A stretch of DNA of 52,407 bases from a virus. Positions 722 to 43,285 of the stretch are shown here, in pieces. Below the pieces are notes generated by a model, which was not told where the DNA came from, did not search any database, and was given only the letters and a program-made list of their open reading frames with translations. Made by a program: the position numbers and the translations under genes. The DNA is taken from the UHGV virus genome UHGV-0113213, one strand, 5' to 3'. Positions within the stretch are counted from its first letter, which is position 1. Every line of letters begins with the position of its first letter.

Positions 722-970
722 ATGAAAAACATGCTCAAAGTGGTATTATTCGCTGCGGCTGTTGCTCTTACTGGTTGTGCTGTTGACAAAGATGCTGCAT
801 TGCACAACCTGCCAAATAGCGGAGTAATTCCTCAAGAAATTGTCTATGATGCTAATGGTCATCTTGTCTATGACACTGAAAAACTTCCATATACTGGTCA
901 ATGGTGTCATGAACTAGATCACAATATGCGCCGCATCGGTAGCCCGTCGAATTGTGTAGCTAACTACTAA
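722..970 (+). CDS. Small lipoprotein (82 aa), opposite-strand moron between side fibre and J; candidate superinfection-exclusion lipoprotein
   Basis: N-terminal signal peptide with lipobox LTGC (MKNMLKVVLFAAAVALTGCA); own terminator; position analogous to Cor/Llp-type lipoprotein morons near tail fibre genes. Confidence 0.65.
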   Translation: MKNMLKVVLFAAAVALTGCAVDKDAALHNLPNSGVIPQEIVYDANGHLVYDTEKLPYTGQWCHELDHNMRRIGSPSNCVANY

Positions 971-976
971 AAGAAA

Positions 977-1002
977 ACCCCGCGCAAAGCGGGGTTATTT
1001 TT
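977..1002. terminator. Bidirectional rho-independent terminator between lipoprotein moron and J
   Basis: GC stem CCCCGC...GCGGGG flanked by A-run on one side and T-run on the other. Confidence 0.7.
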
Positions 1003-4000
1003 ATGACCACGATCCAGAGCTTCTTGTGACAAGGACTAGGCCTGGTCTCCTTATTGCCGCTGATGATGTATTTGTGTAGTTTTCTGTAACAGTTACGGAA
1101 ACATGCTGAGATGTAATACCTGAAACACAATGAACGGCAACGTCTGACTTGTGGGGCGTTGATGCCGCCCTTTCTATGTCTATAGTCTTTGAATTTCCGT
1201 TAATGTTTATGGTTACGTTAATGCGTCCCGACTGGTTATATGTATAGTAAGCAAGGTTATAAGGTATCATTACATAAACCGTTTTCGATAAAGCAGATGA
1301 TGATGAATCCCAATAATTTTTGGTTACACTCCTGCTACCTGACCCTGATTGCGCAGGGAATGTTGCCTCTGGAATTACTGACATACTCGCAACGTCACCA
1401 ACAAAGGATGTAGCTTCTACAGTGCCTCTGAATTTACCGTCAGTCGCGTAAACAGTACCGTTAAACACACCAGAATTAGCGTATACCGTGCCGCGTACTG
1501 TAACGTTGTTAAATGTAGCCCAGCCATCTTTAACTATTGCCCAACCTTGATCGCTACCGTTCCAATTGTATGACGTTATGACATTGCCTATTTTTGCATT
1601 GTCGATTGAACCGTCTTTAATAAACGCTTCGCGCACATACATTGCGCCGTTAGTGACATAGAAAGGTGTCTGATATGTGCCGTTTGCGGCAGTCATTAAC
1701 ACGAATCGGTCAACAAGGAAAATGCACTGCGATTGAACATCAGTACCGCTGCCAGTGAGGCCAAGTGACATTCCTGTTGCGTATTTCATACCGTTGTTAT
1801 CAGTGGCAATCTTGATTGAATATGACGCATCAACGTTACCTTTAAAATCGGTTAACGCTTTCGATGTTGTCTCGATCGCTGTTGTGTTTCCGTTAACGGT
1901 CACTTTCAATTGATCAATTTTTGTCGATAATGCCTCATCTGCCGTTGACATGGCCTGCGACCATTCCGTGATGCTTGAGTTTACATCGTCGAAAGATGCC
2001 GATATTTGAACAAATTTTTCAGCACTTGATGCCTCGTGAGTTGCGAGCGCCGTTGATATATCTGTTATTTTTGCTGAAATGTTTTCATTAATATTGGCTT
2101 CAAGTGATGCTATAGCCTCCGCGCGGGCCTGTGTTTCGTCTGCTATTGCTGTGTCAATCCTTGCTATTTCCGCTTTTGTTTTTATCTGGCCTTTCCTGTA
2201 TTTTGCCTCAATAACGGTGCTCATCTTGCTTTGCGCTATTGAGTTGTTGATAAGTGCAATCGAGGCGTTTTGCAGACTTGCTTTCGCCTGTTCTATCTTG
2301 TCACTGTTTTTATCAACATCACTTTCAACAGAACCAAGCTCCGCACTGATGCCTGATATTGCCTGGGCGCGAGCGCTTGATTCGTCGGCGATAGCTTGAT
2401 CAAGGCGGCTAACACTGGCATTTGTGCTATTTTCAAGCGTTGTTAAATCAGCTTTAACATCTGTTATTGCGTCGCTTCTTGCCTGCGTTTCATCTGATAT
2501 TGCTTTATCGAGACGAGAAACGCTCGCGTCAGTTTTGTTTTCCAGGCTGCTGATACTGGCGTTAACGTTGCTTATAGCCTCCGTTCTAGCCTGCGTTTCG
2601 GTTGCGATTGCTTTGTCAACGCGGGCGATTTCCCCTTTGGTGCTGGAGTCCATTGCGTTCATTTCTGCTGTGATGGTTTCCAGTGATTCCGCTGTCGCTT
2701 TTTTCTCATCTGCGATAACGTTGTCGATACGGTCAATCTGTGCCTTTGTTTCGTTGCGACCTTTCTTATATTGAGCGGTAAGAGTAACCCGCGTGTTAGT
2801 TTGAGCAAGCGAGTTGTTGATCAGAGCAAGCGAAGCGTTTTGTAAACTTGCTTTTGTCTGTGCCAGTTCGTTATTAACGTTTTCGTTTGATACCTCTAAT
2901 GAGTCTATTCTTACCTCATGTTTGCCTATTCCATCGGCGTTTTCTTCGACTTTTTTATAAAGGTCTTCGGTGTCTTTTTTAAGTGTATCTGTATCAGCTT
3001 TAAGGCCATCTGTAGCTGTTTTAAGGTCGGCGGTTGCTGTTTTAAGGTCGGCGGTTGCGCTTTCTATAATATCAGTGCGATCACCAAGATCCTTAATATC
3101 ACTTACCAATTCCTTAAATTGCTCTGAGTTCATCACGTCTTTGGTGACATAGTCGCTGATTTCATCGAAGTTTTCAGTTGGCTTACCTGACGCCTCAACG
3201 AAGTCTGACACGCCAAAGGCATTGCGCGTGCGCACATAAACGTAATAAGTATGGCCCGTGTTCATTCCACCGAACGTCCACTGATACCCGCGCCCGGTAA
3301 ACTGCGCAGACGTGGTTATTTTTGCAGGATCTGTAATCTGGTTTTTCCCTGCATAGTAGAACTCATACGCTGTATCAGTTGTTAGCGTTGTTTTGCTTAT
3401 CGGGTACACTGTAGCCTGAAATACACCTGGAACCCAGTTAACGCCTATTGGCGAGGCTGGTGCACCAATAACAAGATCAACAATACTTTCAGCGCCCTTC
3501 ATGCCAGTATCATTTCTTCCGCGAACGCCTAACGAATACGCGCCAGCGTCGATGCCATAAAAATCATAACTGTATTTCGTTGTTTCGTAGCTTTTAACAA
3601 CCGCACCATCTGTGTTATATATGCGGATCTCAAAGGTCATGCGATGTGTTGTTGTCTGTGTCTCCCATGTTGCGCGGCATTGAACCGTTTCAGATCCAAT
3701 GTTTACCACCTTCAGATTTTCAATGCTCGGCACGCGGAAGTGATTAAGCGTGTCGTTGTTGATTTCAAATATAGCGCCTTCATCGACTACTGCTTGTTTG
3801 TTCGGGTCATGTTGCGCTGCTTCGATGGTGTACACGCTGTTGTTTTCAGTTTCTGCTACGCTGATGATTCGACATAAAACGGGTTTTGCAGATTCGGTTG
3901 ATACAGCAAAAACAGTACCGTTCCGAATCCATGCCGGGGCTGCTGCCAGTGTGATTTTGTTCCCGTTAACACCAGTGATCTGATGTTTTTTAAATTTGCC

Positions 4001-5578
4001 ATCGCCATCAAGTAAACTGATGGTGTCGCCTGCTGCAATGTATTCTGAATCGACTTTATCGACCGTTATCACTTTCCCATTGTTCGCCACGATACGACCG
4101 CCTAAACGCGCGCCTGCGCGGTTATTGTCGAGGATCTCGATTATATCCCCTGGCGTAAAGTGAATCGCATCACGGGCCATTTTAAACGTGAATTTTGACG
4201 GCTCGCGTTTTGCTGTTTCTATCAGCCATTTACCAGCGCGGTGCGCTTGCCCGCGTGAAGTGCACCCGAACGCCTCCAACGTGGTTTCGTTATAACCATC
4301 ACGGGCGATTAGCTCATCATCTGCCACATACTCTTTTGATTGCTCCCAGCCGTTTTCCGGGTCAGTCCATGATACAATCACGGCGTTGTAGCATTCTGCT
4401 CGGGCGATACTTGAACGAGTGAACGCACCATCAACGACGTTTGCGTTTGTGATGGTGGCGATCGGGTCTTGTGGCGCATCAATCATCACGGTAAGGCGTT
4501 GTCCGTCCCATAACGCGATGCCTCGGAACATCCCGGCGATATTGTCCAGTAAATCGCGGGCGCTCATTTGCTCTGTAATGTAAGCATTAAGCGTCATGCG
4601 AGGCTCAAGGCCACCGTAACCATCATCAACCAACTGGTCGCAGTATCGGGAGAGCGTATATAATGCGCCGTCGTCAACGTCAATATAGCCAGCATGGCGG
4701 GCAAGACCGAAACGCTCGTTTTTAACCAGGTAACGGAAGATCCACGCGGGGTTATTGGTGTACGCCTTCTTGAAGCCGCCAAGCCACAAACCGGAATAAG
4801 TGCGCGTTTCCGGGCTATAGTTATCAGGAACGTCAACAATCAGCCCGCGCAGGTGATAAGTGCGGGTAGGTGTATCAGTGTACTGATCATGATCAATAAC
4901 CGCGCCAGCTACAGCTGTGTGGGGATATGACAAATTATCGTCGATTATTTCGCTGTAACTACTCCATCTCGTATCATTCTGCAATAGATCGCTTGTGCTA
5001 TCGGCCGTTACACGGCGAACGCGAATATCAAACGGCTTTTCATCTGGTGCATTGATAATATGCGCTTCAAGATATTCTCCTCTGATCTTGCCGGGGCCTA
5101 TAGTGACATCTTTAACAAGCGTCCACGTAGAAGAAGATGAAGGCTTGACATCAATCATCATCATAACCGATGTGTTATGTTGATTGCTTTGCTCGTCAGA
5201 TTGTACAAGTGAATCGACGCCGATATTCAGGCGAACGCGCGTAACGTTAGGATCTGATACAGTCCTGATTATTGGGGTATCGTGTTTCACCTGAGCGTTA
5301 ACAATAACGGTTGATTCAATGGCGTTAAAACCGTTAATAGGTGATTGATCTAACGTGCCGTTACGCCACGCCACGCTAACACCAGGGACACTTGTATTGC
5401 CGTTCGCGTCTGTAACAGGTGTATCATTAAGCATCACGCTATTTAATGGCGCTTTTGTATTTACAGGTCCATAAATCGGACCTTCAGAAATAATATCAAG
5501 TACACGATAAAATTGTTTATGGTATAGATTATCGTTAATTAAAGTCGGTGTTTTTGCTTTACCGCCGCCGCTACTCAT
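1001..5578 (-). CDS. J: Tail tip / host specificity protein J (central tail fibre), 1525 aa
   Basis: N-terminal ~830 aa and C-terminal ~300 aa resemble lambda J as recalled (e.g. LSVIDAISEGPI-like start, NGWE, AFGCTSRGQAHRAG motifs); follows I-K-L in lambda order. Confidence 0.9.
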   Translation of the reverse strand: MSSGGGKAKTPTLINDNLYHKQFYRVLDIISEGPIYGPVNTKAPLNSVMLNDTPVTDANGNTSVPGVSVAWRNGTLDQSPINGFNAIESTVIVNAQVKHDTPIIRTVSDPNVTRVRLNIGVDSLVQSDEQSNQHNTSVMMMIDVKPSSSSTWTLVKDVTIGPGKIRGEYLEAHIINAPDEKPFDIRVRRVTADSTSDLLQNDTRWSSYSEIIDDNLSYPHTAVAGAVIDHDQYTDTPTRTYHLRGLIVDVPDNYSPETRTYSGLWLGGFKKAYTNNPAWIFRYLVKNERFGLARHAGYIDVDDGALYTLSRYCDQLVDDGYGGLEPRMTLNAYITEQMSARDLLDNIAGMFRGIALWDGQRLTVMIDAPQDPIATITNANVVDGAFTRSSIARAECYNAVIVSWTDPENGWEQSKEYVADDELIARDGYNETTLEAFGCTSRGQAHRAGKWLIETAKREPSKFTFKMARDAIHFTPGDIIEILDNNRAGARLGGRIVANNGKVITVDKVDSEYIAAGDTISLLDGDGKFKKHQITGVNGNKITLAAAPAWIRNGTVFAVSTESAKPVLCRIISVAETENNSVYTIEAAQHDPNKQAVVDEGAIFEINNDTLNHFRVPSIENLKVVNIGSETVQCRATWETQTTTHRMTFEIRIYNTDGAVVKSYETTKYSYDFYGIDAGAYSLGVRGRNDTGMKGAESIVDLVIGAPASPIGVNWVPGVFQATVYPISKTTLTTDTAYEFYYAGKNQITDPAKITTSAQFTGRGYQWTFGGMNTGHTYYVYVRTRNAFGVSDFVEASGKPTENFDEISDYVTKDVMNSEQFKELVSDIKDLGDRTDIIESATADLKTATADLKTATDGLKADTDTLKKDTEDLYKKVEENADGIGKHEVRIDSLEVSNENVNNELAQTKASLQNASLALINNSLAQTNTRVTLTAQYKKGRNETKAQIDRIDNVIADEKKATAESLETITAEMNAMDSSTKGEIARVDKAIATETQARTEAISNVNASISSLENKTDASVSRLDKAISDETQARSDAITDVKADLTTLENSTNASVSRLDQAIADESSARAQAISGISAELGSVESDVDKNSDKIEQAKASLQNASIALINNSIAQSKMSTVIEAKYRKGQIKTKAEIARIDTAIADETQARAEAIASLEANINENISAKITDISTALATHEASSAEKFVQISASFDDVNSSITEWSQAMSTADEALSTKIDQLKVTVNGNTTAIETTSKALTDFKGNVDASYSIKIATDNNGMKYATGMSLGLTGSGTDVQSQCIFLVDRFVLMTAANGTYQTPFYVTNGAMYVREAFIKDGSIDNAKIGNVITSYNWNGSDQGWAIVKDGWATFNNVTVRGTVYANSGVFNGTVYATDGKFRGTVEATSFVGDVASMSVIPEATFPAQSGSGSRSVTKNYWDSSSSALSKTVYVMIPYNLAYYTYNQSGRINVTININGNSKTIDIERAASTPHKSDVAVHCVSGITSQHVSVTVTENYTNTSSAAIRRPGLVLVTRSSGSWS
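2080..3080. repeat. In-frame tandem repeat region inside J (approx 100-bp units plus short 21-bp direct repeats) encoding coiled-coil heptad-like repeats
   Basis: Repeated DNA units e.g. GCCTGCGTTTC.TC.G.TATTGCTTT at ~2130, 2480, 2590; protein repeats ETQAR..AI and TATADLKTATADLK; internal duplication ASLQNAS(L/I)ALINNS(L/I)AQ. Confidence 0.5.
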
Positions 5579-7522: not shown

Positions 7523-7587
7523 TGTGATCTGCGTCACGCTAAATCATACCAAAATGGATTGATCGCGGTTTTTACAATATGTATATT
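7523..7587 (+). promoter_or_regulatory. Moron promoter: CRP-like site TGTGATCTGCGTCACG (7523-7538), TACCAAAATGGA element, -35 TTGATC (7559-7564), 17-bp spacer, -10 TATATT (7582-7587)
   Basis: Hexamers and spacing read directly; CRP-like centre ~63 bp upstream of predicted start site (class I-like position). Confidence 0.5.
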
Positions 7588-7633: not shown

Positions 7634-7822
7634 ATGACTGAAAAGCTATGGAAGTTGACGGTATTCATGACAGACGGTAGGGAAAAGGTTATCGCCCTGT
7701 ATGACGACGAGGGTGAAGCATTGGTTGACGCGCTTTTACTTGCTGAGGATGACCGCCTTTTGGGATACCAGATCGAACCTGTCAAATATGAGGCTAACAA
7801 AAATGAAAAAATACAGTCTTGA
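7634..7822 (+). CDS. Small acidic protein (62 aa), moron gene 1 between L and M
   Basis: ATG with GGAGGTG RBS; strongly acidic composition (DDEGEALVDALLLAEDD); opposite strand to tail operon. Confidence 0.6.
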   Translation: MTEKLWKLTVFMTDGREKVIALYDDEGEALVDALLLAEDDRLLGYQIEPVKYEANKNEKIQS

Positions 7823-8159: not shown

Positions 8160-8408
8160 ATGGGGCGGCGCAATCACGGTGATTATGTGTACACGTTGAA
8201 ACAGGCCGCCCGCCTCATCGGTTATCATGAACACGAATTTATTGATTTGCTGATTGAGCGCGGGATACTGTACCAGGTCTGTTTAACGCTGTACCCGAAA
8301 GCGAAATACCTACATGAAAAGTTATTCATCATCATGACGGATGAAAACCAGGTTAACCATTCATTCGTCACTGATAAGGGCGTTAATTATCTGCGTGATA
8401 ACTTATAG
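8160..8408 (+). CDS. Small protein (82 aa) with possible HTH (YTLKQAARLIGYHEHEFIDLLIERGIL), moron gene 3
   Basis: ORF 10 nt after previous stop; helix-turn-helix-like segment by eye. Confidence 0.5.
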   Translation: MGRRNHGDYVYTLKQAARLIGYHEHEFIDLLIERGILYQVCLTLYPKAKYLHEKLFIIMTDENQVNHSFVTDKGVNYLRDNL

Positions 8409-9282: not shown

Positions 9283-9438
9283 ATGAAACGCTATGTAGTA
9301 GTAATGCTAAATAACGCATTCGAACAAGTGGAAATAGCAATCGTTAAGGGTTTCGACGACGCATTCAAATACGGTCAATTCATGATGAATGCGAAAGAAG
9401 ATGAATACCGGGACTTCTTCCTGAAGGCACTTAACTAA
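9283..9438 (+). CDS. Small protein (51 aa), moron gene between M and H (not in ORF track, below 60 aa)
   Basis: ATG preceded by AAGGAGG RBS; MKRYVVVMLNNAFEQVEIAIVKGFDDAFKYGQFMMNAKEDEYRDFFLKALN. Confidence 0.5.
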   Translation: MKRYVVVMLNNAFEQVEIAIVKGFDDAFKYGQFMMNAKEDEYRDFFLKALN

Positions 9439-9455
9439 GGATGATGGGGTGAGTT

Positions 9456-9710
9456 ATGAAACTGGTAGCGATTGACAGAAATCTGAAAGCACAGAAAAAC
9501 GCACAGGACCGGATCATCAAGAAAGGTAAGGAATTACTTAAAGCCTTTCTGAGAAAAGAAGTTTACCCCAAAAAGTTACGCGACGGTTACGGATACAAAA
9601 TGGATATCAATCTTGATTGGAGGCTGTTTAGCGAAGATTTGAAGGTTTGGTTAATTGTTGAGCACCGTGCCTATAACAAGTTATGTGGCGTGAAAGGCAC
9701 TCATAAGTGA
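9456..9710 (+). CDS. Small basic protein (84 aa), second gene of M-H moron
   Basis: RBS GGGGTGAG; Lys/Arg-rich; followed by terminator. Confidence 0.55.
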   Translation: MKLVAIDRNLKAQKNAQDRIIKKGKELLKAFLRKEVYPKKLRDGYGYKMDINLDWRLFSEDLKVWLIVEHRAYNKLCGVKGTHK

Positions 9711-9761: not shown

Positions 9762-9801
9762 CGAAAAATAACCCCGGCATTGCACCGGGGTTTAGTTTAT
9801 T
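9762..9801. terminator. Bidirectional rho-independent terminator (stem CCCCGG/CCGGGG) after moron and after H
   Basis: Hairpin flanked by A-run and T-run; H stop codon lies in the T-run. Confidence 0.65.
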
Positions 9802-12139
9802 TGCGGCGAGGTTGCAACATTCCGCCTGGTCTTTGAGATTCCCTTGTTATCATTTTCATGGCTACACGTTCCATTGTTAATTCAAGTCTGCGGCTGTCTT
9901 CGTCGCTGAATCCGTTCGTGGTCTGAATGCTGATACTGACAGGCATACTAATACCGCCACCGCCGCCAATATCACGGCCCGGAATAACTCTGCCGTTCTC
10001 GCCAGGGATCATATATTGATTGCCGTTAGATGTCTGGAATAGCTCCGGCCTGTTGTGTTCCCCTACGCGGTACATATTACCACCAATGACGCTACCACCA
10101 TTAAAGCGACCGCCGCCGAAAATTGACGTAGCCAGCGACATGATCGCAGTGAGCGCCGCCGAACCAGCCGCCGCCCAGCTACCGCCAGTTGACGCCGCAG
10201 TTGCCGCCGCTGCTGGGGCCGCCGCCGCAGCAATGCTTCCCTGAGCTGCTACCGCGCTTGCTGTTGTACTTGTTTGCGTGGCCTTGCTTTGTGTCTCCAT
10301 CATGATCTGATCTGCTATCCAGTTTGCAGCTATGTCTGAGAGTCTGTTACCGATATTGCCGAGTATATTGCTTCCTAAGTTAGCAAAAACATCACTCAAT
10401 GATTGAGTGCCGTTTAACAGGCCAACAAGCGCATTACTCATTCCGCCTTTAAGGCCATTAACACAATCACCGATAAGGCCGTTTGTGTCGCTTTGCGCCT
10501 GCCATTGTTCCCATTTCAGATCGCGGATCTGTTGCTCATAGGCTAACAATTCCTGTTTCTGTTGCGCTTCAGTAGCGCCCAGGTCTATAAGCATTTGCTT
10601 ACGGATGGCCCATTCATTTTGCGCCTGCTGGATGGGGTCAACTTCGCCTTTTAGCTGATCCATCGGGCTTACTATTTGTGACCATTTATCACGCAATTCA
10701 TCTACCGGAATTTGTGCTAATTCTTCTTTCAGTTCCTTGCCGATCCCTTTTTGCGCGGCGCGGTACTCAAGGAGCGTGATTTTACCCTGGGCAAATGCAG
10801 CATCAATGGCCTTGCCGTTCTCCAACGCTTTGCGCATGGCGGCGGCGTCTTTGTTGTACTGATCAGAAACGCTTATACCTTTGTCACCAAGCCGATCAGC
10901 TTCCGATTTCTTCTCTTTTTTCTGTTTTTTCGGCTTGTCTACTGGCTTGTCGAATCCGGTAATCGCTCCGTCATTGGCAGCATTCTGTTCATTTTTCCTT
11001 GCTTCTTCTGTAGCCTGGATTGCTGCGGTCAGATCATCCTGTAGTTGCATGACCTTGCCAACGGTCTTCCCGTATTTCTTCTCGTAGTTGCTGTTATATT
11101 CGTCGGTTTGCTCTCCTACTACCTCCTTCATCCATTTATAGCCATCCATTAGCGCCTTGATTGGCGTCACCATTGCGATGATCTTCTCTGCCACCTCTCC
11201 AGCCTTAACAGCCACATCATCAAACATGTCGATAAATTCGCTACCAGCCGTTTTGAGTGTGTCGAAGCAGGTTTTAGCGAATTTAGCGCCATCGCCAAGC
11301 CCTTTAACGCCTTTCGTGATCAAGTCGATAGCTGAAACAACGCCATCTGACACGCCAAAAAGATCATCCAACTGCTCAACAAGGCCCATAATTTCTACTT
11401 TAAGCTCATTGATAGCCATGCCGGATGTGCGCGGCAACTGAGCAAACTTATCGTTTGTTTCCTGCGTAGCCGCCTGTATTGCGTTAACCATCCTTTCAGC
11501 CGTGATCTTGCCGTCCAGCATTTCGGCGCGGAACTGGCCCATTGATAATCCCATATGGCGGGCCATTGTTTGTACGATGGTCGGCGTATTTTCAAGCAGG
11601 CTGTTAAATTCTTCGGCACGAAGAACACCGCCGTCGATAGACTGACGGAATTGACGCATTGAGTTAGACATCTGTTCCGCTGACGCGCCGCCTAATGCAC
11701 CCATTTTCTGAATAGTGCCAACCAGGTTAAGCAATTGCCCTTCCGTAGCGGAGGTGTTTTTTAGTGAGATAGCCAGGCCTTGCCATAATTCGCCAGTATC
11801 TTTCAGGCTCTGCCCCGTCTCCCTGGATATTGCTTTCAGGCCGTCGAAAACCCGTCCGGCGGACTCCGCATCGCCCGTAAGCATTTTGATTTTTACGCGA
11901 AGCATTTTTGCTTGCTCCGCCATATCCATAAATTGGCGCACAGCCTCCGCAGCAATTAGCAGATGGATAACCCTGGTCAGTGCCTTGATGGATGTTTTCA
12001 GGGTGTTTACCTGGCGGTCAGCCTGTTTTGCGCCGCGCTCTATACGATCAAAGGCCTGGTCTGCCTGTCGTTGTGCAACGAGAAGTTGACCAGTTTTCGC
12101 ATCAACTTCGTAATAAATTGTACCTACACTGGTAGCCAT
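9797..12139 (-). CDS. H: Tail tape measure protein H (780 aa)
   Basis: Long alpha-helical/Ala-Gln-rich protein with Gly-rich C-terminal region; position upstream of M-L-K-I-J. Confidence 0.85.
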   Translation of the reverse strand: MATSVGTIYYEVDAKTGQLLVAQRQADQAFDRIERGAKQADRQVNTLKTSIKALTRVIHLLIAAEAVRQFMDMAEQAKMLRVKIKMLTGDAESAGRVFDGLKAISRETGQSLKDTGELWQGLAISLKNTSATEGQLLNLVGTIQKMGALGGASAEQMSNSMRQFRQSIDGGVLRAEEFNSLLENTPTIVQTMARHMGLSMGQFRAEMLDGKITAERMVNAIQAATQETNDKFAQLPRTSGMAINELKVEIMGLVEQLDDLFGVSDGVVSAIDLITKGVKGLGDGAKFAKTCFDTLKTAGSEFIDMFDDVAVKAGEVAEKIIAMVTPIKALMDGYKWMKEVVGEQTDEYNSNYEKKYGKTVGKVMQLQDDLTAAIQATEEARKNEQNAANDGAITGFDKPVDKPKKQKKEKKSEADRLGDKGISVSDQYNKDAAAMRKALENGKAIDAAFAQGKITLLEYRAAQKGIGKELKEELAQIPVDELRDKWSQIVSPMDQLKGEVDPIQQAQNEWAIRKQMLIDLGATEAQQKQELLAYEQQIRDLKWEQWQAQSDTNGLIGDCVNGLKGGMSNALVGLLNGTQSLSDVFANLGSNILGNIGNRLSDIAANWIADQIMMETQSKATQTSTTASAVAAQGSIAAAAAPAAAATAASTGGSWAAAGSAALTAIMSLATSIFGGGRFNGGSVIGGNMYRVGEHNRPELFQTSNGNQYMIPGENGRVIPGRDIGGGGGISMPVSISIQTTNGFSDEDSRRLELTMERVAMKMITRESQRPGGMLQPRRK

Positions 12140-12159
12140 GATTTAACCTCATGCAAAAA

Positions 12160-12221
12160 TGTGATCTGTGTATCTATTTTATACAAAATGGCTTTACTTC
12201 AACGACTCCATTTTGTATAAG
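12160..12221 (+). promoter_or_regulatory. Lipoprotein moron promoter: CRP-like TGTGATCTGTGTATCT (12160-12175), TACAAAATGGC, -35 TTTACT (12193-12198), 17-bp spacer, -10 TATAAG (12216-12221)
   Basis: Read directly; CRP-like centre ~61 bp upstream of predicted start site. Confidence 0.45.
12179..12220. repeat. Perfect 13-bp inverted repeat TTATACAAAATGG / CCATTTTGTATAA with 16-bp spacer in the H / lipoprotein divergent region
   Basis: Arms at 12179-12191 and 12208-12220 are exact reverse complements. Confidence 0.75.
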
Positions 12222-12266
12222 GAAGCTAAAGGGAATGGTCAGTAAATCAAGTTAGCGTGGTGGGTT

Positions 12267-12926
12267 ATGAAACGGTTAGCAAAAGTGGCAATGATTGCGG
12301 CGGTATTGGGTCTGGTTGGTTGCAATGAGGATAATGAAAAAGCGCCTATAGTGACCAATCAAGAGCAACAAGCATTAGTAGAGAAAAATGCTAAATGGCT
12401 TGCAGAACAACAAGCAAAACAAGCCGCATACGATGCACAGTTAGAAAAAGAAAATGCTGGTAAACAGTGGCTTGTAGTTGAAAGAAAAGATGATATGCAG
12501 GACGCAAAAAACGTATTCCTTTTTGTGAAAGCAGAACAATTCAGCGGAAGTCTTGATGCTTTCCCGACACTGAAGGCACAGGATAAGAATAAACCGGTAT
12601 TAACAATCGCTTGCCAGGGTAATAAAACAAAAATGTTCGTAGCATGGTCACACCATGTAACTGACGCCGGGGACACTACTTATATTAACTACCGGATCGG
12701 CGTTCACAAAGCTGTAGCTACTGAGTGGTGGCGGTCAACTAATTATAAAGCTCTTGGATTATGGGACGGCAAAAAAGCCATCCCAATGATTAAAAAACTG
12801 GTTAACGAAAAACAATTCATCATTGAAGTAGTGCCGGAAGCTGGCGACATTGAGAAAGCAGTGTTTAACATTGATGGTCTTTATAACCACATCGACAAAG
12901 TGAAAAACGCTTGCAACTGGAATTAA
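12267..12926 (+). CDS. Lipoprotein (219 aa), moron between H and tail chaperone
   Basis: Signal peptide with lipobox LVGC (MKRLAKVAMIAAVLGLVGCNE); opposite strand to structural operon. Confidence 0.7.
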   Translation: MKRLAKVAMIAAVLGLVGCNEDNEKAPIVTNQEQQALVEKNAKWLAEQQAKQAAYDAQLEKENAGKQWLVVERKDDMQDAKNVFLFVKAEQFSGSLDAFPTLKAQDKNKPVLTIACQGNKTKMFVAWSHHVTDAGDTTYINYRIGVHKAVATEWWRSTNYKALGLWDGKKAIPMIKKLVNEKQFIIEVVPEAGDIEKAVFNIDGLYNHIDKVKNACNWN

Positions 12927-12936
12927 GGGGTAAATC

Positions 12937-13311
12937 ATGAAAAAAATAATCAAAGCGGTTCTCATTGGTGTTATGGCTTTAGCTCTTACAGGGTGCGCAA
13001 GATCAACTGATTTCGTTAAGTTAGCTGATAAAAATTTGCAAGTTGGAATGACTTGTGAGCAAGTGAATAAAATAATGGGGGAACCACAAAGAATCGAGCA
13101 TGACGGTAATTATAGTTATCACGTATGGTATTCAGTAACCAGCACGATAGGATTTACTTACATGGATGTTGAAGAATTATCCCCTTCAAGGGTTATCGCA
13201 AAGTTTGATAACTGCATCCTAAAAGAATGGAAAGATCGCAGTAAGGCAAAGTCTGTATACAATACAATCACACACAGTTCACCAGGTACAGCAATTAAAG
13301 ATTTCAATTAG
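12937..13311 (+). CDS. Lipoprotein (124 aa), second moron gene
   Basis: Signal peptide with lipobox LTGC (MKKIIKAVLIGVMALALTGCA). Confidence 0.7.
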   Translation: MKKIIKAVLIGVMALALTGCARSTDFVKLADKNLQVGMTCEQVNKIMGEPQRIEHDGNYSYHVWYSVTSTIGFTYMDVEELSPSRVIAKFDNCILKEWKDRSKAKSVYNTITHSSPGTAIKDFN

Positions 13312-14002
13312 CAAAACGCCCGGATCTACCGGGCTTTTCTTGCTCACGATTTTTCATTCTTTCTAGTGCCTTTTTAGCGGCCTCCATTTGCTCGTCATAA
13401 GCACGTTTATTTATGTGAATGTTTGGCTTGCTTTTCTCGTTTCTTTCGTCTGGCGGCGTTTTAGCGCGTACAGCGGCCCTATATCCGGTCATTGTCATAT
13501 TCCATGCTTCCGATTCTGACAAGCCCAGGTGAGCAACGGCAGAATAGACGAATTCAAGGACGTTAAAAGTCGGCTTATATTCCCCTTCCGGGATTTCCCC
13601 GGACTCTTCTTCCGGGCCATCACCAATAAGACCGTGGTACATGCAGTGCTGCGCAAGCGTGATGATATCCTCGATCGGCATTAATCCGGGCTTTAACTTT
13701 AACTTACCCGAAGGAGTAAACCAGCATTCGCCCAATAACGGGCCTATTTCGTCGTCTGAGCAACATTTCAGGATGTGCATTGATGTCTGAACTATTTCAC
13801 CATAACACCGCGCCAGAATGCGATTGCGTAGGTCTGGATCTGCTGGCAATCGTGATGGATATTTGCCGCCGTGGATAAGTGCGAAATATTCGACAAGCTC
13901 ACTATCGTTGCCGATTTTAGCCATCGCAGCAAAGCAAGGATTAAACTCATAGCGCTTACCGTTCACCACGGCAGCAAATTGTCCTGTACGAACATGGATC
14001 AT
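13304..14002 (-). CDS. Putative tail assembly chaperone (G/GT analogue)
   Basis: Position between major tail protein and tape measure; acidic middle region; start moved to ATG at 14000-14002 with AAGGTG RBS; no frameshift site verified. Confidence 0.45.
   Translation of the reverse strand: MIHVRTGQFAAVVNGKRYEFNPCFAAMAKIGNDSELVEYFALIHGGKYPSRLPADPDLRNRILARCYGEIVQTSMHILKCCSDDEIGPLLGECWFTPSGKLKLKPGLMPIEDIITLAQHCMYHGLIGDGPEEESGEIPEGEYKPTFNVLEFVYSAVAHLGLSESEAWNMTMTGYRAAVRAKTPPDERNEKSKPNIHINKRAYDEQMEAAKKALERMKNREQEKPGRSGRFAN
13318..13342 (+). terminator. Rho-independent terminator after lipoprotein morons (stem GCCCGG/CCGGGC + TTTTCT)
   Basis: Hairpin followed by T-run on plus strand. Confidence 0.6.
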
Positions 14003-14011
14003 AGTATTCAC

Positions 14012-14057: not shown

Positions 14058-14534
14058 TTATGCTGGCGGAACGTCGCCTACCGTTACCTTGCCAGCGCTT
14101 TCGCACTCAATAGACCAGGTGGAAACATCATCATGCGGATCTTCTTCTTTAAAGGAAGTGCAAAGGAATGGGCCTTCAGTTACGTCTACAGGAGAAACGA
14201 TCTTCAGCCATACATAAGGTTGTGATCCGGTGGTTTCACCTGGCGTAATTACGTGGCGTTTCAGCGCTTTCTGATTATGGATTTCTTCAGTGCGGGACAC
14301 ACCGTCGCCGGAGAAAGAAACGGATTTGTAAGTAACCATTGATTCTTTCGTGTAATCGGCTGATTTATCGGCGGTGGCGTCAGCGGTTTCCCATTCAACG
14401 GAAAGTGTTTTACCACGCATCATGCCTAACGCTTTGTACGCTTCAGCTTCCGGCTTCGCATTTGGACAAGCGATAGCGAAGAATACAGCAACGTCACGGC
14501 CTGTAAACGTGCCTTTTTCGCAAGTCTGAGACAT
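14058..14534 (-). CDS. Major tail (tube) protein
   Basis: 158 aa, position upstream of chaperone/tape measure, followed by strong hairpin; composition typical of siphovirus tube proteins. Confidence 0.65.
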   Translation of the reverse strand: MSQTCEKGTFTGRDVAVFFAIACPNAKPEAEAYKALGMMRGKTLSVEWETADATADKSADYTKESMVTYKSVSFSGDGVSRTEEIHNQKALKRHVITPGETTGSQPYVWLKIVSPVDVTEGPFLCTSFKEEDPHDDVSTWSIECESAGKVTVGDVPPA

Positions 14535-28612: not shown

Positions 28613-28674
28613 TTTATAACAAAATGGCACTGCCGAAACAATGCCATTTCGTAAACCTTGTGATACAGATCACA
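28613..28674 (-). promoter_or_regulatory. Promoter with near-consensus CRP-like palindrome TGTGATCTGTATCACA (28659-28674), TTTACGAAATGGCA element, -35 TTGTTT (28636-28641), 17 bp, -10 TATAAA (28613-28618)
   Basis: Read on minus strand; CRP-like centre ~61 bp upstream of predicted start. Confidence 0.5.
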
Positions 28675-32504: not shown

Positions 32505-32694
32505 TGTCGTTACTCCGTCCGTAAATATGGACAGGCTCAACTGGTACTGCTGGCAATTCGCCATCATTTAACTCGCTCGCCATGCCTAATATTAAACGCG
32601 CTTCAGCACCAGTGACTTTCTTGCACCATGCGTCGCCTGTTTTATCTTCAAATAAGATAACGGCAAACTGATCGTTTATTTCCAGCTTATCCAT
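32491..32694 (-). CDS. Hypothetical acidic protein (67 aa)
   Basis: ATGA overlap with Q stop. Confidence 0.4.
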   Translation of the reverse strand: MDKLEINDQFAVILFEDKTGDAWCKKVTGAEARLILGMASELNDGELPAVPVEPVHIYGRSNDNENN

Positions 32695-33422
32695 TATTCA
32701 CCCCGTGTCACTCGTTTGATTTCGCTTTCCGCGCGAGATTCTTCTTTGAATAGCTCCGCTATGGCGTCTTCATAGAAAACCCTGTATTTCTTCCACCATG
32801 TTGATCTGCTTACCGGGAAAACAAGCTGGTTAACAGCCTGCCGGACGAGATCTACAGGGAAACGCGAGTACCCGCGCCCGCCGCAGTGCTGGCACGTTTT
32901 GAATACTGGCATTTCCGCCGCTTCGCTGGCTGCTTTATCCGGTACTTCGCCACGCCCCTTGCACCTCTGGCAATGGTTTTTAACGTAGCCTTTGCCGTTG
33001 CACCGCGAGCAAACTGTCGATGTGTATTCACAATATGGATTCGGTAAAAGCCCGTTACCTCCGCACTTAGGGCAAACCTTTTCGGTAGCCGCACTTTGGC
33101 AGTAATCCCGAAACGCGAAAACGGCAACAAGAATAATAAGATCATTGCGTTGTTCTTCATTTAATTCCATCACGTATTCGTAATCTTTCGCCATAACCCT
33201 TAAACGCTCTGTAAGCAAAATTACGGCCCTGTGTTTTTCAGCTTGCGATAGCTCCATTTTCCCTAAAAAAGCACTATAGCCAAGCTCTACGCGCGATTGC
33301 GCCATACCAGCGGCGGTAAGCGCATCCGTCGTATTAAGTGCATCCGGGGATGTTCCCCGGCTTTCGTCTGATAATCGCGGTGATTTGGGAAAGTGGAATT
33401 TCAGAATGGATTCTAAATTCAT
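32694..33422 (-). CDS. Q: Late-gene antiterminator Q-like protein (242 aa)
   Basis: N-terminus MNLESILKFHFPKSPRLSD...AAGMAQS...AFLGK and multiple CxxC zinc motifs match my recollection of the Q antitermination family; located after NinG-RusA. Confidence 0.65.
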   Translation of the reverse strand: MNLESILKFHFPKSPRLSDESRGTSPDALNTTDALTAAGMAQSRVELGYSAFLGKMELSQAEKHRAVILLTERLRVMAKDYEYVMELNEEQRNDLIILVAVFAFRDYCQSAATEKVCPKCGGNGLLPNPYCEYTSTVCSRCNGKGYVKNHCQRCKGRGEVPDKAASEAAEMPVFKTCQHCGGRGYSRFPVDLVRQAVNQLVFPVSRSTWWKKYRVFYEDAIAELFKEESRAESEIKRVTRGE

Positions 33423-42358: not shown

Positions 42359-42387
42359 AATATACGCCCCGTAAAACATCGAGTCAA
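42359..42387 (-). promoter_or_regulatory. Candidate pL: -35 TTGACT (42382-42387), 17-bp spacer, -10 TATATT (42359-42364), with TACAAAATGGA element immediately upstream
   Basis: Read on minus strand. Confidence 0.45.
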
Positions 42388-42481
42388 TCCATTTTGTATA
42401 CTTTTTTAAAATATTTTATATGCCATTGATATTTAAATAATAAATAACGTTTTCTGTTTACGTTTTGGTGTTTTCCAGGCA

Positions 42482-42510
42482 AAGAAAAGCCGCCATTCGG
42501 CGGCTAATGT
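42482..42510. terminator. Hairpin GCCGCC-ATTC-GGCGGC after cI (U-run on minus strand; weaker on plus)
   Basis: Stem flanked by A-run/T-rich run directly after cI stop. Confidence 0.55.
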
Positions 42511-43158
42511 TTATGGCAGGTTTACGATCTTCGCATCAACCACCACGCCTATAATTTTTGATTCTGGATTCATAGGGATTGGCGGATACAGCGGATTGAG
42601 CGAACGTAAAAGCCTTTGACCTCCATCAATAATCAACTGTTTAAACGTCGGTATCTGCCCTTCCTCAAGCTGGGCTATAACCAGTTTGCCGTCAATAGCT
42701 GGCGCGTGCGGGTCCACAAGTATCATCGTCCCCGCCGGGATGCTCAACCCCTGCGGCGCGTTCATTGATTCACCTTTGGCAACCAGCCAGTAACTGTCAT
42801 CTGAACAAATAACGCTAGTCGTAACGTGTCGTAATGCTGAACGCCTTGCGTCATCCATATTGTTTACTGTGTCCTTCCAGTCAATAACCGGGTAACTACC
42901 TAAATCACGCGGCGGCACGGCCTGAAGTGTATTAGAAACAGAATCATCAATGACCATGCCATCATGTGTAACAGTAAACTGCCGACGACCAAGCTCGCGC
43001 ATAATCCGCGCAATATCTTCAAGATTTGGCTCTCGGCGACCGTTCAGCCAGTGTGACAGGCCGCCTTTAGTTATCCCCATACGATCCGCGAGTGAATCCT
43101 GGCTCATGCCCTGCGCCCGCATGAGCTGCTTTGCTAAGTCATACCATTTTGTTTTCAT
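42511..43158 (-). CDS. cI: CI-like repressor (HTH_XRE plus S24 LexA-type peptidase domain)
   Basis: N-terminal HTH (MSQDSLADRMGITKGGLSHWLNGRR), C-terminal autocleavage-type domain with Ser (GESM) and Lys (KQL) region. Confidence 0.85.
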   Translation of the reverse strand: MKTKWYDLAKQLMRAQGMSQDSLADRMGITKGGLSHWLNGRREPNLEDIARIMRELGRRQFTVTHDGMVIDDSVSNTLQAVPPRDLGSYPVIDWKDTVNNMDDARRSALRHVTTSVICSDDSYWLVAKGESMNAPQGLSIPAGTMILVDPHAPAIDGKLVIAQLEEGQIPTFKQLIIDGGQRLLRSLNPLYPPIPMNPESKIIGVVVDAKIVNLP

Positions 43159-43185: not shown

Positions 43186-43285
43186 TGATGCAAGTCACAA
43201 AACGTGTATTTTAAGCCTTGATCTTAAAATTCCATTTTGTAAACTTGCAGACAAGGTAAGGCCATACTTGCAAAGACGCAAGGAA
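43186..43285. promoter_or_regulatory. Immunity-region operator/promoter segment: inverted repeats CTTGCAGACAAG (43244-43255) and CTTGCAAAGACGCAAG (43267-43282) plus TACAAAATGG element (43232-43244)
   Basis: Palindromes read directly; exact operator boundaries not resolved. Confidence 0.4.

Follow-up and report, generated by a model that had tools for sequence, protein, structure and literature searches.

A moron cassette for two predicted outer-membrane lipoproteins occupies an exchangeable slot in the tail operon of an mEp021-like Escherichia coli prophage

Why should two lipoprotein genes lie inside a phage tail operon, on the strand opposite to their neighbours? The question is raised by virus genome UHGV-0113213, whose whole analysed stretch of 52,407 nt is referred to here as the window, and in which two plus-strand genes, ORF1 and ORF2 (open reading frames 1 and 2), separate the tape measure gene from the gene of a DUF6246 protein. 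A sequence-only reading of this DNA had taken them for a pair of lipoprotein morons blocking the phage receptor in the manner of Cor and Llp, possibly under catabolite control. Our analyses indicate that the region is a moron cassette sitting in a classic moron slot of an mEp021-like prophage tail operon, that ORF1 and ORF2 are independent modules of this slot, that they are probably not this phage's own receptor blocker, and that an envelope-level protective role in the lysogen has a probability of roughly 0.5. Our confidence in the anatomy is much higher than in the function.

The window represents an E. coli prophage of the mEp021-like ("mEpimmI") type and matches the temperate coliphages of the mEp021 group and phage MagusPhagus. 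E. coli chromosomes carry prophages 99.9% identical to the window region, one of them integrated beside abgT. The exact ORF1/ORF2 cassette is rare, being present in 14 of 5426 complete E. coli genomes, and human and Shiga toxin-producing E. coli (STEC) isolates are among the strains that bear it. The mEpimmI group was described in 2025 and was reported to be as frequent in human faeces as lambdoid phages (PMC11893012); that paper mentions neither the slot between DUF6246 and the tape measure gene, nor VasI/TagO, nor DUF6246. The elements of the cassette and its borders are as follows.

9797-12139, minus strand: tape measure gene, left slot boundary (Pfam TMP_3, 169 bits; phrog_1538)
12140-12266, plus strand: conserved regulatory and leader region, common to all cargo types and nearly invariant in relatives
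12267-12926, plus strand: ORF1, 219-amino-acid lipoprotein precursor of the VasI/TagO family (MKRLAKVAMIAAVLGLVG followed by C; lipobox LVGC, Cys19)
12937-13311, plus strand: ORF2, 124-amino-acid lipoprotein precursor (MKKIIKAVLIGVMALALTG followed by C; lipobox LTGC, Cys20)
13318-13344, plus strand: intrinsic terminator of the cassette (6-bp GC stem, 5-nt loop, then TTTTCTTG)
13304-14011, minus strand: DUF6246 gene, right slot boundary (Pfam PF19759, 184 bits)
14058-14534, minus strand: tail tube gene, following the DUF6246 gene

Both lipoprotein genes were found as the sequence-only reading had described them, co-oriented on the plus strand against the tail operon, separated by 10 bases and each preceded by a Shine-Dalgarno-like sequence. 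Its "tail chaperone" neighbour agrees with the position of the DUF6246 gene between the tube and tape measure genes, although chaperone is a label that DUF6246 bears by position only. The cassette has a GC content of 37-42% (0.375-0.417), that of the flanks is 47-52%, and the skews are inverted between the two. The plus-strand terminator was also recovered: the hairpin GCCCGGATCTACCGGGC at 13318-13334 precedes the T-run and folds at -15.5 kcal/mol (z = -3.3), and the records of mEp013 and mEp021 annotate terminators at the equivalent place. This terminator is embedded in the last codons of the convergent DUF6246 gene, so that late transcription of the minus strand must read through the hairpin, which folds on that strand too and is there followed by GTTTTG. 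Translated on the opposite strand (13304-13345), the hairpin gives the last residues of DUF6246, ...PGRSGRFAN. In relatives with other cargos the protein ends in ...KARN, ...KARG or ...KAR, and these cargo-dependent C-termini indicate that the 3′ end of the cassette rewrote the end of a tail gene. Taken as a moron, the region thus consists of extra DNA between genes that are adjacent in distant relatives, with two lipoprotein genes, a deviant base composition and a terminator of its own. The promoter, read from sequence alone, is a promoter-like pair of -35 and -10 hexamers that is invariant in orthologues and that a generic scan did not list.

To describe the slot, we collected 76 loci around DUF6246 homologues from IMG/VR, to which the GenBank phages were added, and determined for every locus how far DUF6246 lies from the tape measure gene. 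This gap was 0-66 bp in distant relatives (L064, L070, L074 and L075) and 620-1254 bp in all mEpimmI-like phages. Among 52 related loci, the cargos were distributed as follows.

20 loci: VasI lipoprotein (ORF1 type)
16 loci: 138-amino-acid secreted protein
13 loci: ORF2 lipoprotein
10 loci: membrane pair of 35 and about 100 amino acids
7 loci: 106-amino-acid protein lacking a signal peptide
5 loci: 119-amino-acid secreted protein
1 locus: 165-amino-acid secreted protein
1 locus: 245-amino-acid lipoprotein

The cargos are therefore a handful of opposite-strand modules, nearly all encoding exported proteins, that occur in varied combinations. ORF1 was accompanied by ORF2 in 11 loci, by the unrelated 106-amino-acid protein in seven and by no other cargo in two, while ORF2 had other partners in two loci, namely the 138-amino-acid protein and a 59-amino-acid membrane protein. 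One more distant phage carried its VasI gene on the opposite side of DUF6246. An obligate two-gene system was accordingly rejected, as each gene is found without the other, and the "pair" of the earlier description dissolves into two modules that co-occur but also travel separately. The signal peptides of different cargos resemble one another (MKRLAK..., MKNIIKA...), which suggests that cargos have been exchanged by recombination between the conserved promoter/leader region and the conserved 3′ end. Most relatives also contain a conserved ORF of 27-29 amino acids (MKNYYRPNEHE[H/R]YADFIEEMLKALKNKK) that lies some 150-260 bp into the slot, after the promoter and before the first cargo (L002, L003, L004 and numerous loci from IMG/VR). 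The window lacks this ORF, which some GenBank records annotate on the wrong strand and which may be a leader peptide or micro-protein.

The region upstream of the cargo was as constant as the cargo was variable. A 107-bp intergenic stretch was nearly invariant in the 35 distinct orthologous sequences obtained from the 52 loci, and it was kept when the cargo differed, even where the N-terminus of the tape measure protein was only about 40% identical. We read 12140-12266 as a predicted promoter region that is encoded by the phage backbone and precedes whichever cargo the slot contains. Three blocks in it do not vary, TGTGAT, CTATTTTATACAAAATG and CATTTTGTATA, of which the second and third are the arms of an inverted repeat. 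The elements of this region are listed below.

12160-12175, plus strand: CRP-like box TGTGATCTGTGTATCT, left half 5/5, right half TATCT 2/5
12179-12220: perfect 13-bp inverted repeat TTATACAAAATGG-N16-CCATTTTGTATAA, both arms invariant in orthologues
12193-12221, plus strand: predicted sigma-70 promoter, -35 TTTACT (12193-12198), 17-bp spacer, -10 TATAAG (12216-12221)

The left arm of the inverted repeat occupies the position of an UP element (-46 to -37), the -35 hexamer lies in the spacer between the arms and the -10 hexamer in the right arm. The repeat folds at -14.3 kcal/mol on the plus strand and -13.5 kcal/mol on the minus strand; a scan of the whole window with Rfam returned no family, so the repeat matches no known RNA element. 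We also rejected the idea that the palindrome contains a promoter driving the tape measure gene on the minus strand, since the -35 would be GTCGTT. The generic sigma-70 scan of the window left the cassette promoter unlisted since its -10 ends in G (TATAAG in the window, TATAAA in most relatives). We retained the prediction only because of its conservation in orthologues and in four paralogous modules elsewhere in the window; with these, the TTTACT/TATAAG pair that had been noted before stands as a candidate promoter.

Both ORFs are real genes under purifying selection, given ratios of nonsynonymous to synonymous substitution rates (dN/dS, against diverged copies) of 0.21-0.38 for ORF1 and 0.07-0.10 for ORF2. 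Their signal peptides show a positively charged n-region, a hydrophobic core and a canonical lipobox, whose Gly-Cys is invariant across the homologues of each (G18/C19 in ORF1, G19/C20 in ORF2). Lipoproteins without Asp at position +2 are sorted by the Lol system to the outer membrane. The +2 residues are N in ORF1 and A in ORF2, and in the absence of an Asp retention signal both proteins should be lipidated, Lol-sorted to the outer membrane and facing the periplasm. A conserved cysteine pair in each mature protein fits disulphide-bonded periplasmic domains.

ORF1 matched the Pfam family VasI (PF11319) at 58.3 bits, against a gathering score of 26.5, over residues 55-218, and RefSeq names it "TagO"; with 47.3 bits it did not reach the cut-off of the NCBIfam equivalog TIGR03360 (124.2). 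The protein is a beta-sandwich of the VasI/TagO family, carried by a helix some 30 residues long: the predicted helix spans residues 31-62, and the sandwich that follows carries the conserved Cys116 and Cys216. Family members within and outside phages, and likewise the VasI of the E. coli type VI secretion system 2 (T6SS-2), retain C116 and the C-terminal C-x-W motif (C216-N-W218). In a profile search the family comprised about 1,900 representative clusters, of which the phage clade is a small, distinct branch. ORF2 is a small domain of BamE/OsmE/BLIP-like fold, with conserved Cys40 and Cys93; the likeness exists at the fold level only, all profile scores being below threshold (BamE 18.9 vs 23.2, DUF7738 21.2 vs 24.6, OsmE 17.8 vs 65). 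Profile searches against PDB sequences gave no meaningful match, and structure comparison with BFVD returned only weak matches, to unnamed phage lipoproteins.

What, then, might such a cassette do? We favour a protective role of ORF1 and ORF2 at the envelope of the lysogen, to which we assign a probability of about 0.5. The cassette promoter would drive the cargo without dependence on the late operon, and the cargo products would act at the envelope. Their likeliest action would be a post-adsorption exclusion of other phages, hindering the passage of the tail tip or tape measure protein through the periplasm; alternatively, they could neutralise another incoming agent that acts on the envelope or in the periplasm. 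Blocking of the phage's own receptor would be left to the Lpp gene adjacent to J (722-970). Three precedents favour envelope-level protection. HK97 gene 15, the founding moron, occupies the same position, and the superinfection exclusion exerted by gp15 blocks DNA entry without touching the receptor (PMC3594210). SDIC4B, a protein with a VasI-like fold from defence islands of Serratia and Enterobacteria, has measured anti-phage protection (bioRxiv 10.1101/2024.01.28.577318). Finally, in P2-like phages a VasI-family gene adjoins attR, and in Brucella phage BiPBO1 one comes immediately after the repressor gene, so that the family recurs at lysogenic-conversion positions of unrelated temperate phages.

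Several points weigh against this proposal. SDIC4B was reported to lack BLAST-level similarity to VasI (bioRxiv 10.1101/2024.01.28.577318), and the precedent therefore concerns the fold only; a 2026 review still lists the function of TagO/VasI as unknown (PMC13584744). A PADLOC scan of ORF1, ORF2 and DUF6246 gave no hits. The 106-amino-acid protein, a frequent partner of ORF1, lacks a signal peptide, which means that the slot is not strictly envelope-only. Moreover, the 10-mer TACAAAATGG, found by the -35 hexamer of the cassette, clusters beside the repressor gene too; it could be a repressor operator, which would make the cassette promoter one of early infection.

This last point is the core of the rival that survives best. 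It concerns regulation only and proposes that TACAAAATGG is an operator of the repressor or of another phage regulator, so that the lipoproteins would be made early after infection or induction, like Llp of T5. Ten exact copies of TACAAAATGG occur in the window (among them 9203, 9594, 12182, 12208-, 20201-, 34882, 34947-, 42389-, 43232- and 47213-, the trailing hyphen marking the minus strand), and 26 copies with at most one mismatch compare with about 5 expected. The element often forms inverted pairs around CRP-like boxes, and at no fewer than five promoter-like sites it directly adjoins the -35 hexamer. Next to the repressor gene, a span of 100 bp contains three exact or near-exact copies, which make up an imperfect inverted repeat of 27 nt; this repeat is located at 43189-43249, where the genes diverge. 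The cassette promoter also belongs to a repeated module, [T/A]AC[A/C/G]AAATGG-N1-(-35)-N17-TATA, which gave five exact pattern matches against 0.15 expected in the window. The module sites, with the two regulatory genes of the window, are listed below.

7552: promoter-like module, TTGATC/TATATT
9207: promoter-like module, TTCACA/TATATA
12186: promoter-like module of the cassette, TTTACT/TATAAG
28644, minus strand: near-match promoter-like module
42394-42361, minus strand: strong promoter-like module just downstream of the repressor gene, TTGACT-17-TATATT
42511-43158: repressor gene (HTH_3 and Peptidase_S24)
32694-33422: Q-type antiterminator gene

Three of these modules precede counter-oriented blocks of the tail operon, namely the blocks at 7635/7701-8408 and 9283-9710 and the present cassette. 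Downstream of the repressor gene, the minus strand carries a hairpin terminator (42481-42512) and then TTGACT-17-TATATT (42361-42394), which is probably the early-left promoter and whose -35 is abutted by TACAAAATGG. An early cassette promoter would fit this arrangement, but at -46 to -37 the element fits an UP element equally well, as judged from the known consensus; several of its copies are mere coding-sequence coincidences around start codons, and no operator has been defined for the mEpimmI group. We also considered TACAAAATGG as a -35 or -10 element in its own right and rejected this, because downstream hexamers at a fixed spacing from its TATACA/TTTACA form promoters inconsistently. The 10-mer may thus be an UP element or a site of a phage regulator, and we regard early-infection control as unlikely.

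A second rival is that the cassette serves host fitness or virulence, in the way of lambda Bor or Lom (serum resistance, adhesion or invasion, envelope stress), and has no anti-phage role. Such roles are known for morons, human and STEC isolates are among the carriers, and ORF2 resembles the stress lipoprotein OsmE as well as BamE. That resemblance is confined to the fold, however, the cassette is found in few E. coli genomes, and the fast turnover of the slot among unrelated exported proteins is more typical of arms-race genes. This explanation therefore appears unlikely to us, and more so than early-infection control.

Slightly less probable still is a function linked to type VI secretion (T6SS), whereby ORF1 and ORF2 would guard the lysogen from effectors acting in the periplasm or modulate the host's own T6SS-2. 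In its favour are the membership of ORF1 in PF11319 and its 32% identity over 114 amino acids to the VasI of the E. coli T6SS-2 cluster. In addition, Vibrio cholerae VCA0118 (VasI) is exported and is required for full T6SS-dependent killing while being dispensable for Hcp and VgrG secretion (PMC3166118). The fold class of ORF2 is shared with the Bacteroides T6SS immunity protein BtiO and with BLIP inhibitors. Yet the neighbours of ORF1 are tail genes and no T6SS gene lies near the cassette, whereas a true T6SS-2 context was seen in EDL933. The TIGR03360 score is far under the cut-off, VasI-like proteins are widespread outside T6SS loci, the match of ORF2 to BtiO is no better than that to BamE or OsmE, and the two genes are genetically unlinked. 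A recent capture of the host T6SS-2 vasI was rejected on the same low identity, the host protein not being a lipoprotein.

The remaining explanation is the one from which the question started, a receptor block under the control of cyclic AMP and CRP. As to control, the left half-site AAATGTGATCT of the CRP-like box is perfect and its TGTGAT is invariant in orthologues; the centre of the box, at 12167.5, lies at about -61 from the start implied by the predicted -10, close to the class I position (about -61.5). The right half matches in 2 of 5 positions, varies in orthologues (TATCT, TCTCT, CCTCT...) and never exceeds 3/5, and the three mismatches to TGTGA-N6-TCACA make the box no better than chance when taken alone. 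Sites with at most two mismatches number 33 in the window, against 22 expected, and the cassette box is not among them. Palindromes with at most one mismatch are enriched (9 against 1.4 expected), as is the 12-mer TGTGATCTGYRT (four copies against 0.04 expected). These palindromes lie at the following positions.

590-605 and 7523-7538: CRP-like palindromes preceding two other plus-strand moron blocks
28659-28674: perfect CRP-like palindrome TGTGATACAGATCACA
31685, 34923, 38326, 39933, 43184 and 46618: further CRP-like palindromes

Most of them lie in intergenic gaps adjoining TACAAAATGG elements. They may be sites of host CRP or of a phage regulator, and the promoter modules might share the 12-mer by common ancestry or on account of another factor. 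CRP control of the cassette is possible, though the case for it is weak.

As to the receptor, the position of two predicted outer-membrane lipoproteins among tail genes speaks for a block of this kind. The window, however, contains another lipoprotein gene in a position to exert it, outside the ORF1/ORF2 cassette.

722-970, plus strand: 82-amino-acid lipoprotein (lipobox LTGC; MKNMLKVVLFAAAVALTG followed by C) between J and the next fibre gene, orthologue of Lpp010
1001-5578, minus strand: J gene

This lipoprotein is 91.5% identical to mEp010 gp116 (Lpp010), which when expressed alone excluded the LamB-dependent phages mEp010, mEp044, mEp554 and lambda (PMC11893012). Its upstream module at 584-625 (TGTGATCTGTGTTACA and TTATACAAAATG) is of the same kind as that of the cassette. 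Seurat/CAjan-like phages also carry related lipoproteins beside J. The slot and the receptor-binding tip were compared across relatives. Two IMG/VR contigs share the C-terminus of the window J, at 100% and 99% identity, yet differ in slot cargo: the first has the 165-amino-acid secreted protein, the second ORF1 with the 106-amino-acid protein. The opposite case is strain 2017C-4173W12, whose prophage matches the window cassette at 99.9% identity, while the J-adjacent gene of this prophage is unrelated and its J tip diverged (65% over 238 amino acids, the last 60 being unalignable). The 138-amino-acid cargo is common to the OmpA-dependent mEp021 and to MagusPhagus, which has a LamB-type Lpp. 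These comparisons show that the J-adjacent gene tracks the receptor-binding tip and that the slot cargo does not. Neither ORF1 nor ORF2 has sequence or fold similarity to Cor or Llp. Altogether, the own-receptor-blocking role appears to belong to the lipoprotein at 722-970, and a Cor/Llp-like block by ORF1 and ORF2 under CRP control is the least likely of the explanations considered.

Beyond protection of the lysogen as such, a broader proposal can be made, in which the mEpimmI slot is an envelope-defence hotspot, ORF1 the representative of a novel class of exclusion or immunity proteins acting in the periplasm and ORF2 a BLIP-like inhibitor, likewise periplasmic, with the TGTGATCTGYRT and TACAAAATGG module co-regulating all counter-oriented morons of the tail operon. 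We hold this tentatively and consider it doubtful. If it were true, ORF1 might intercept incoming tape-measure or tail-tip complexes or effectors delivered by T6SS, and the large PF11319 family would thereby gain its first molecular function. Where prophage morons remodel the envelope, they determine to which other phages, and possibly to which competitors, a lysogen is vulnerable, and the slot constitutes a natural library of about ten exported cargos behind one conserved promoter, convenient for systematic testing. Should nothing come of it, the locus would be one more uncharacterised moron. The VasI/TagO link and the exchangeable slot make the cassette moderately interesting.

Two further counter-oriented blocks were observed in the tail operon.

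9283-9438 and 9456-9710, plus strand: block between the minor tail protein and tape measure genes
7635/7701-8150 and 8160-8408, plus strand: block between the tail L-like and minor tail genes

The first encodes a 51-amino-acid ORF and then an 84-amino-acid protein with a ParE-like toxin domain (Pfam PF24732, 44 bits); it lies behind the same type of promoter module as the cassette and could be a toxin-antitoxin-like moron. The second encodes a 149-amino-acid protein with no family match and an 82-amino-acid KilAC/ANT-domain fragment, and upstream of it lie a near-consensus CRP box, at 7523, and a predicted TTGATC-17-TATATT promoter.

Compared with known systems, ORF2 shares its fold with BamE, OsmE and BLIP (SmpA_OmlA-type, PF04355), and its sequence scores below the cut-offs of these families. 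ORF1 shares with VasI/TagO a domain above the Pfam threshold, the cysteine pair of the family, the C-terminal C-x-W and predicted export; it differs in being a lipoprotein with a helical tether, in lying outside a T6SS locus and in scoring below the equivalog cut-off. With SDIC4B it has in common, according to the published description, a VasI-like fold outside T6SS, although SDIC4B is chromosomal and linked to BrxR. The Lpp proteins of mEpimmI phages (Lpp021, Lpp010), Cor and Llp are, like the predicted products of ORF1 and ORF2, outer-membrane lipoproteins of prophages encoded in the structural cluster, and the upstream module of Lpp (TGTGATCTG... and TATACAAAATG) is of the same style as that of the cassette. 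They are, however, proteins of about 60-80 amino acids encoded beside the receptor-binding protein and matching its receptor, whereas ORF1 and ORF2, which come from other families, are of greater size, neighbour the tape measure gene and show no linkage to the J tip. The closest comparison is HK97 gene 15. Its product is a small YebO-like inner-membrane protein encoded on the same strand as the tail genes, while the two lipoproteins of the cassette, predicted to reside in the outer membrane, belong to unrelated families and are encoded on the opposite strand, in a slot for many cargos. Nevertheless, both lie between the gene in the tail assembly chaperone position and the tape measure gene, both encode envelope proteins, and both have a terminator of their own; HK97 gene 15 has its own promoter, and the cassette a promoter-like region.

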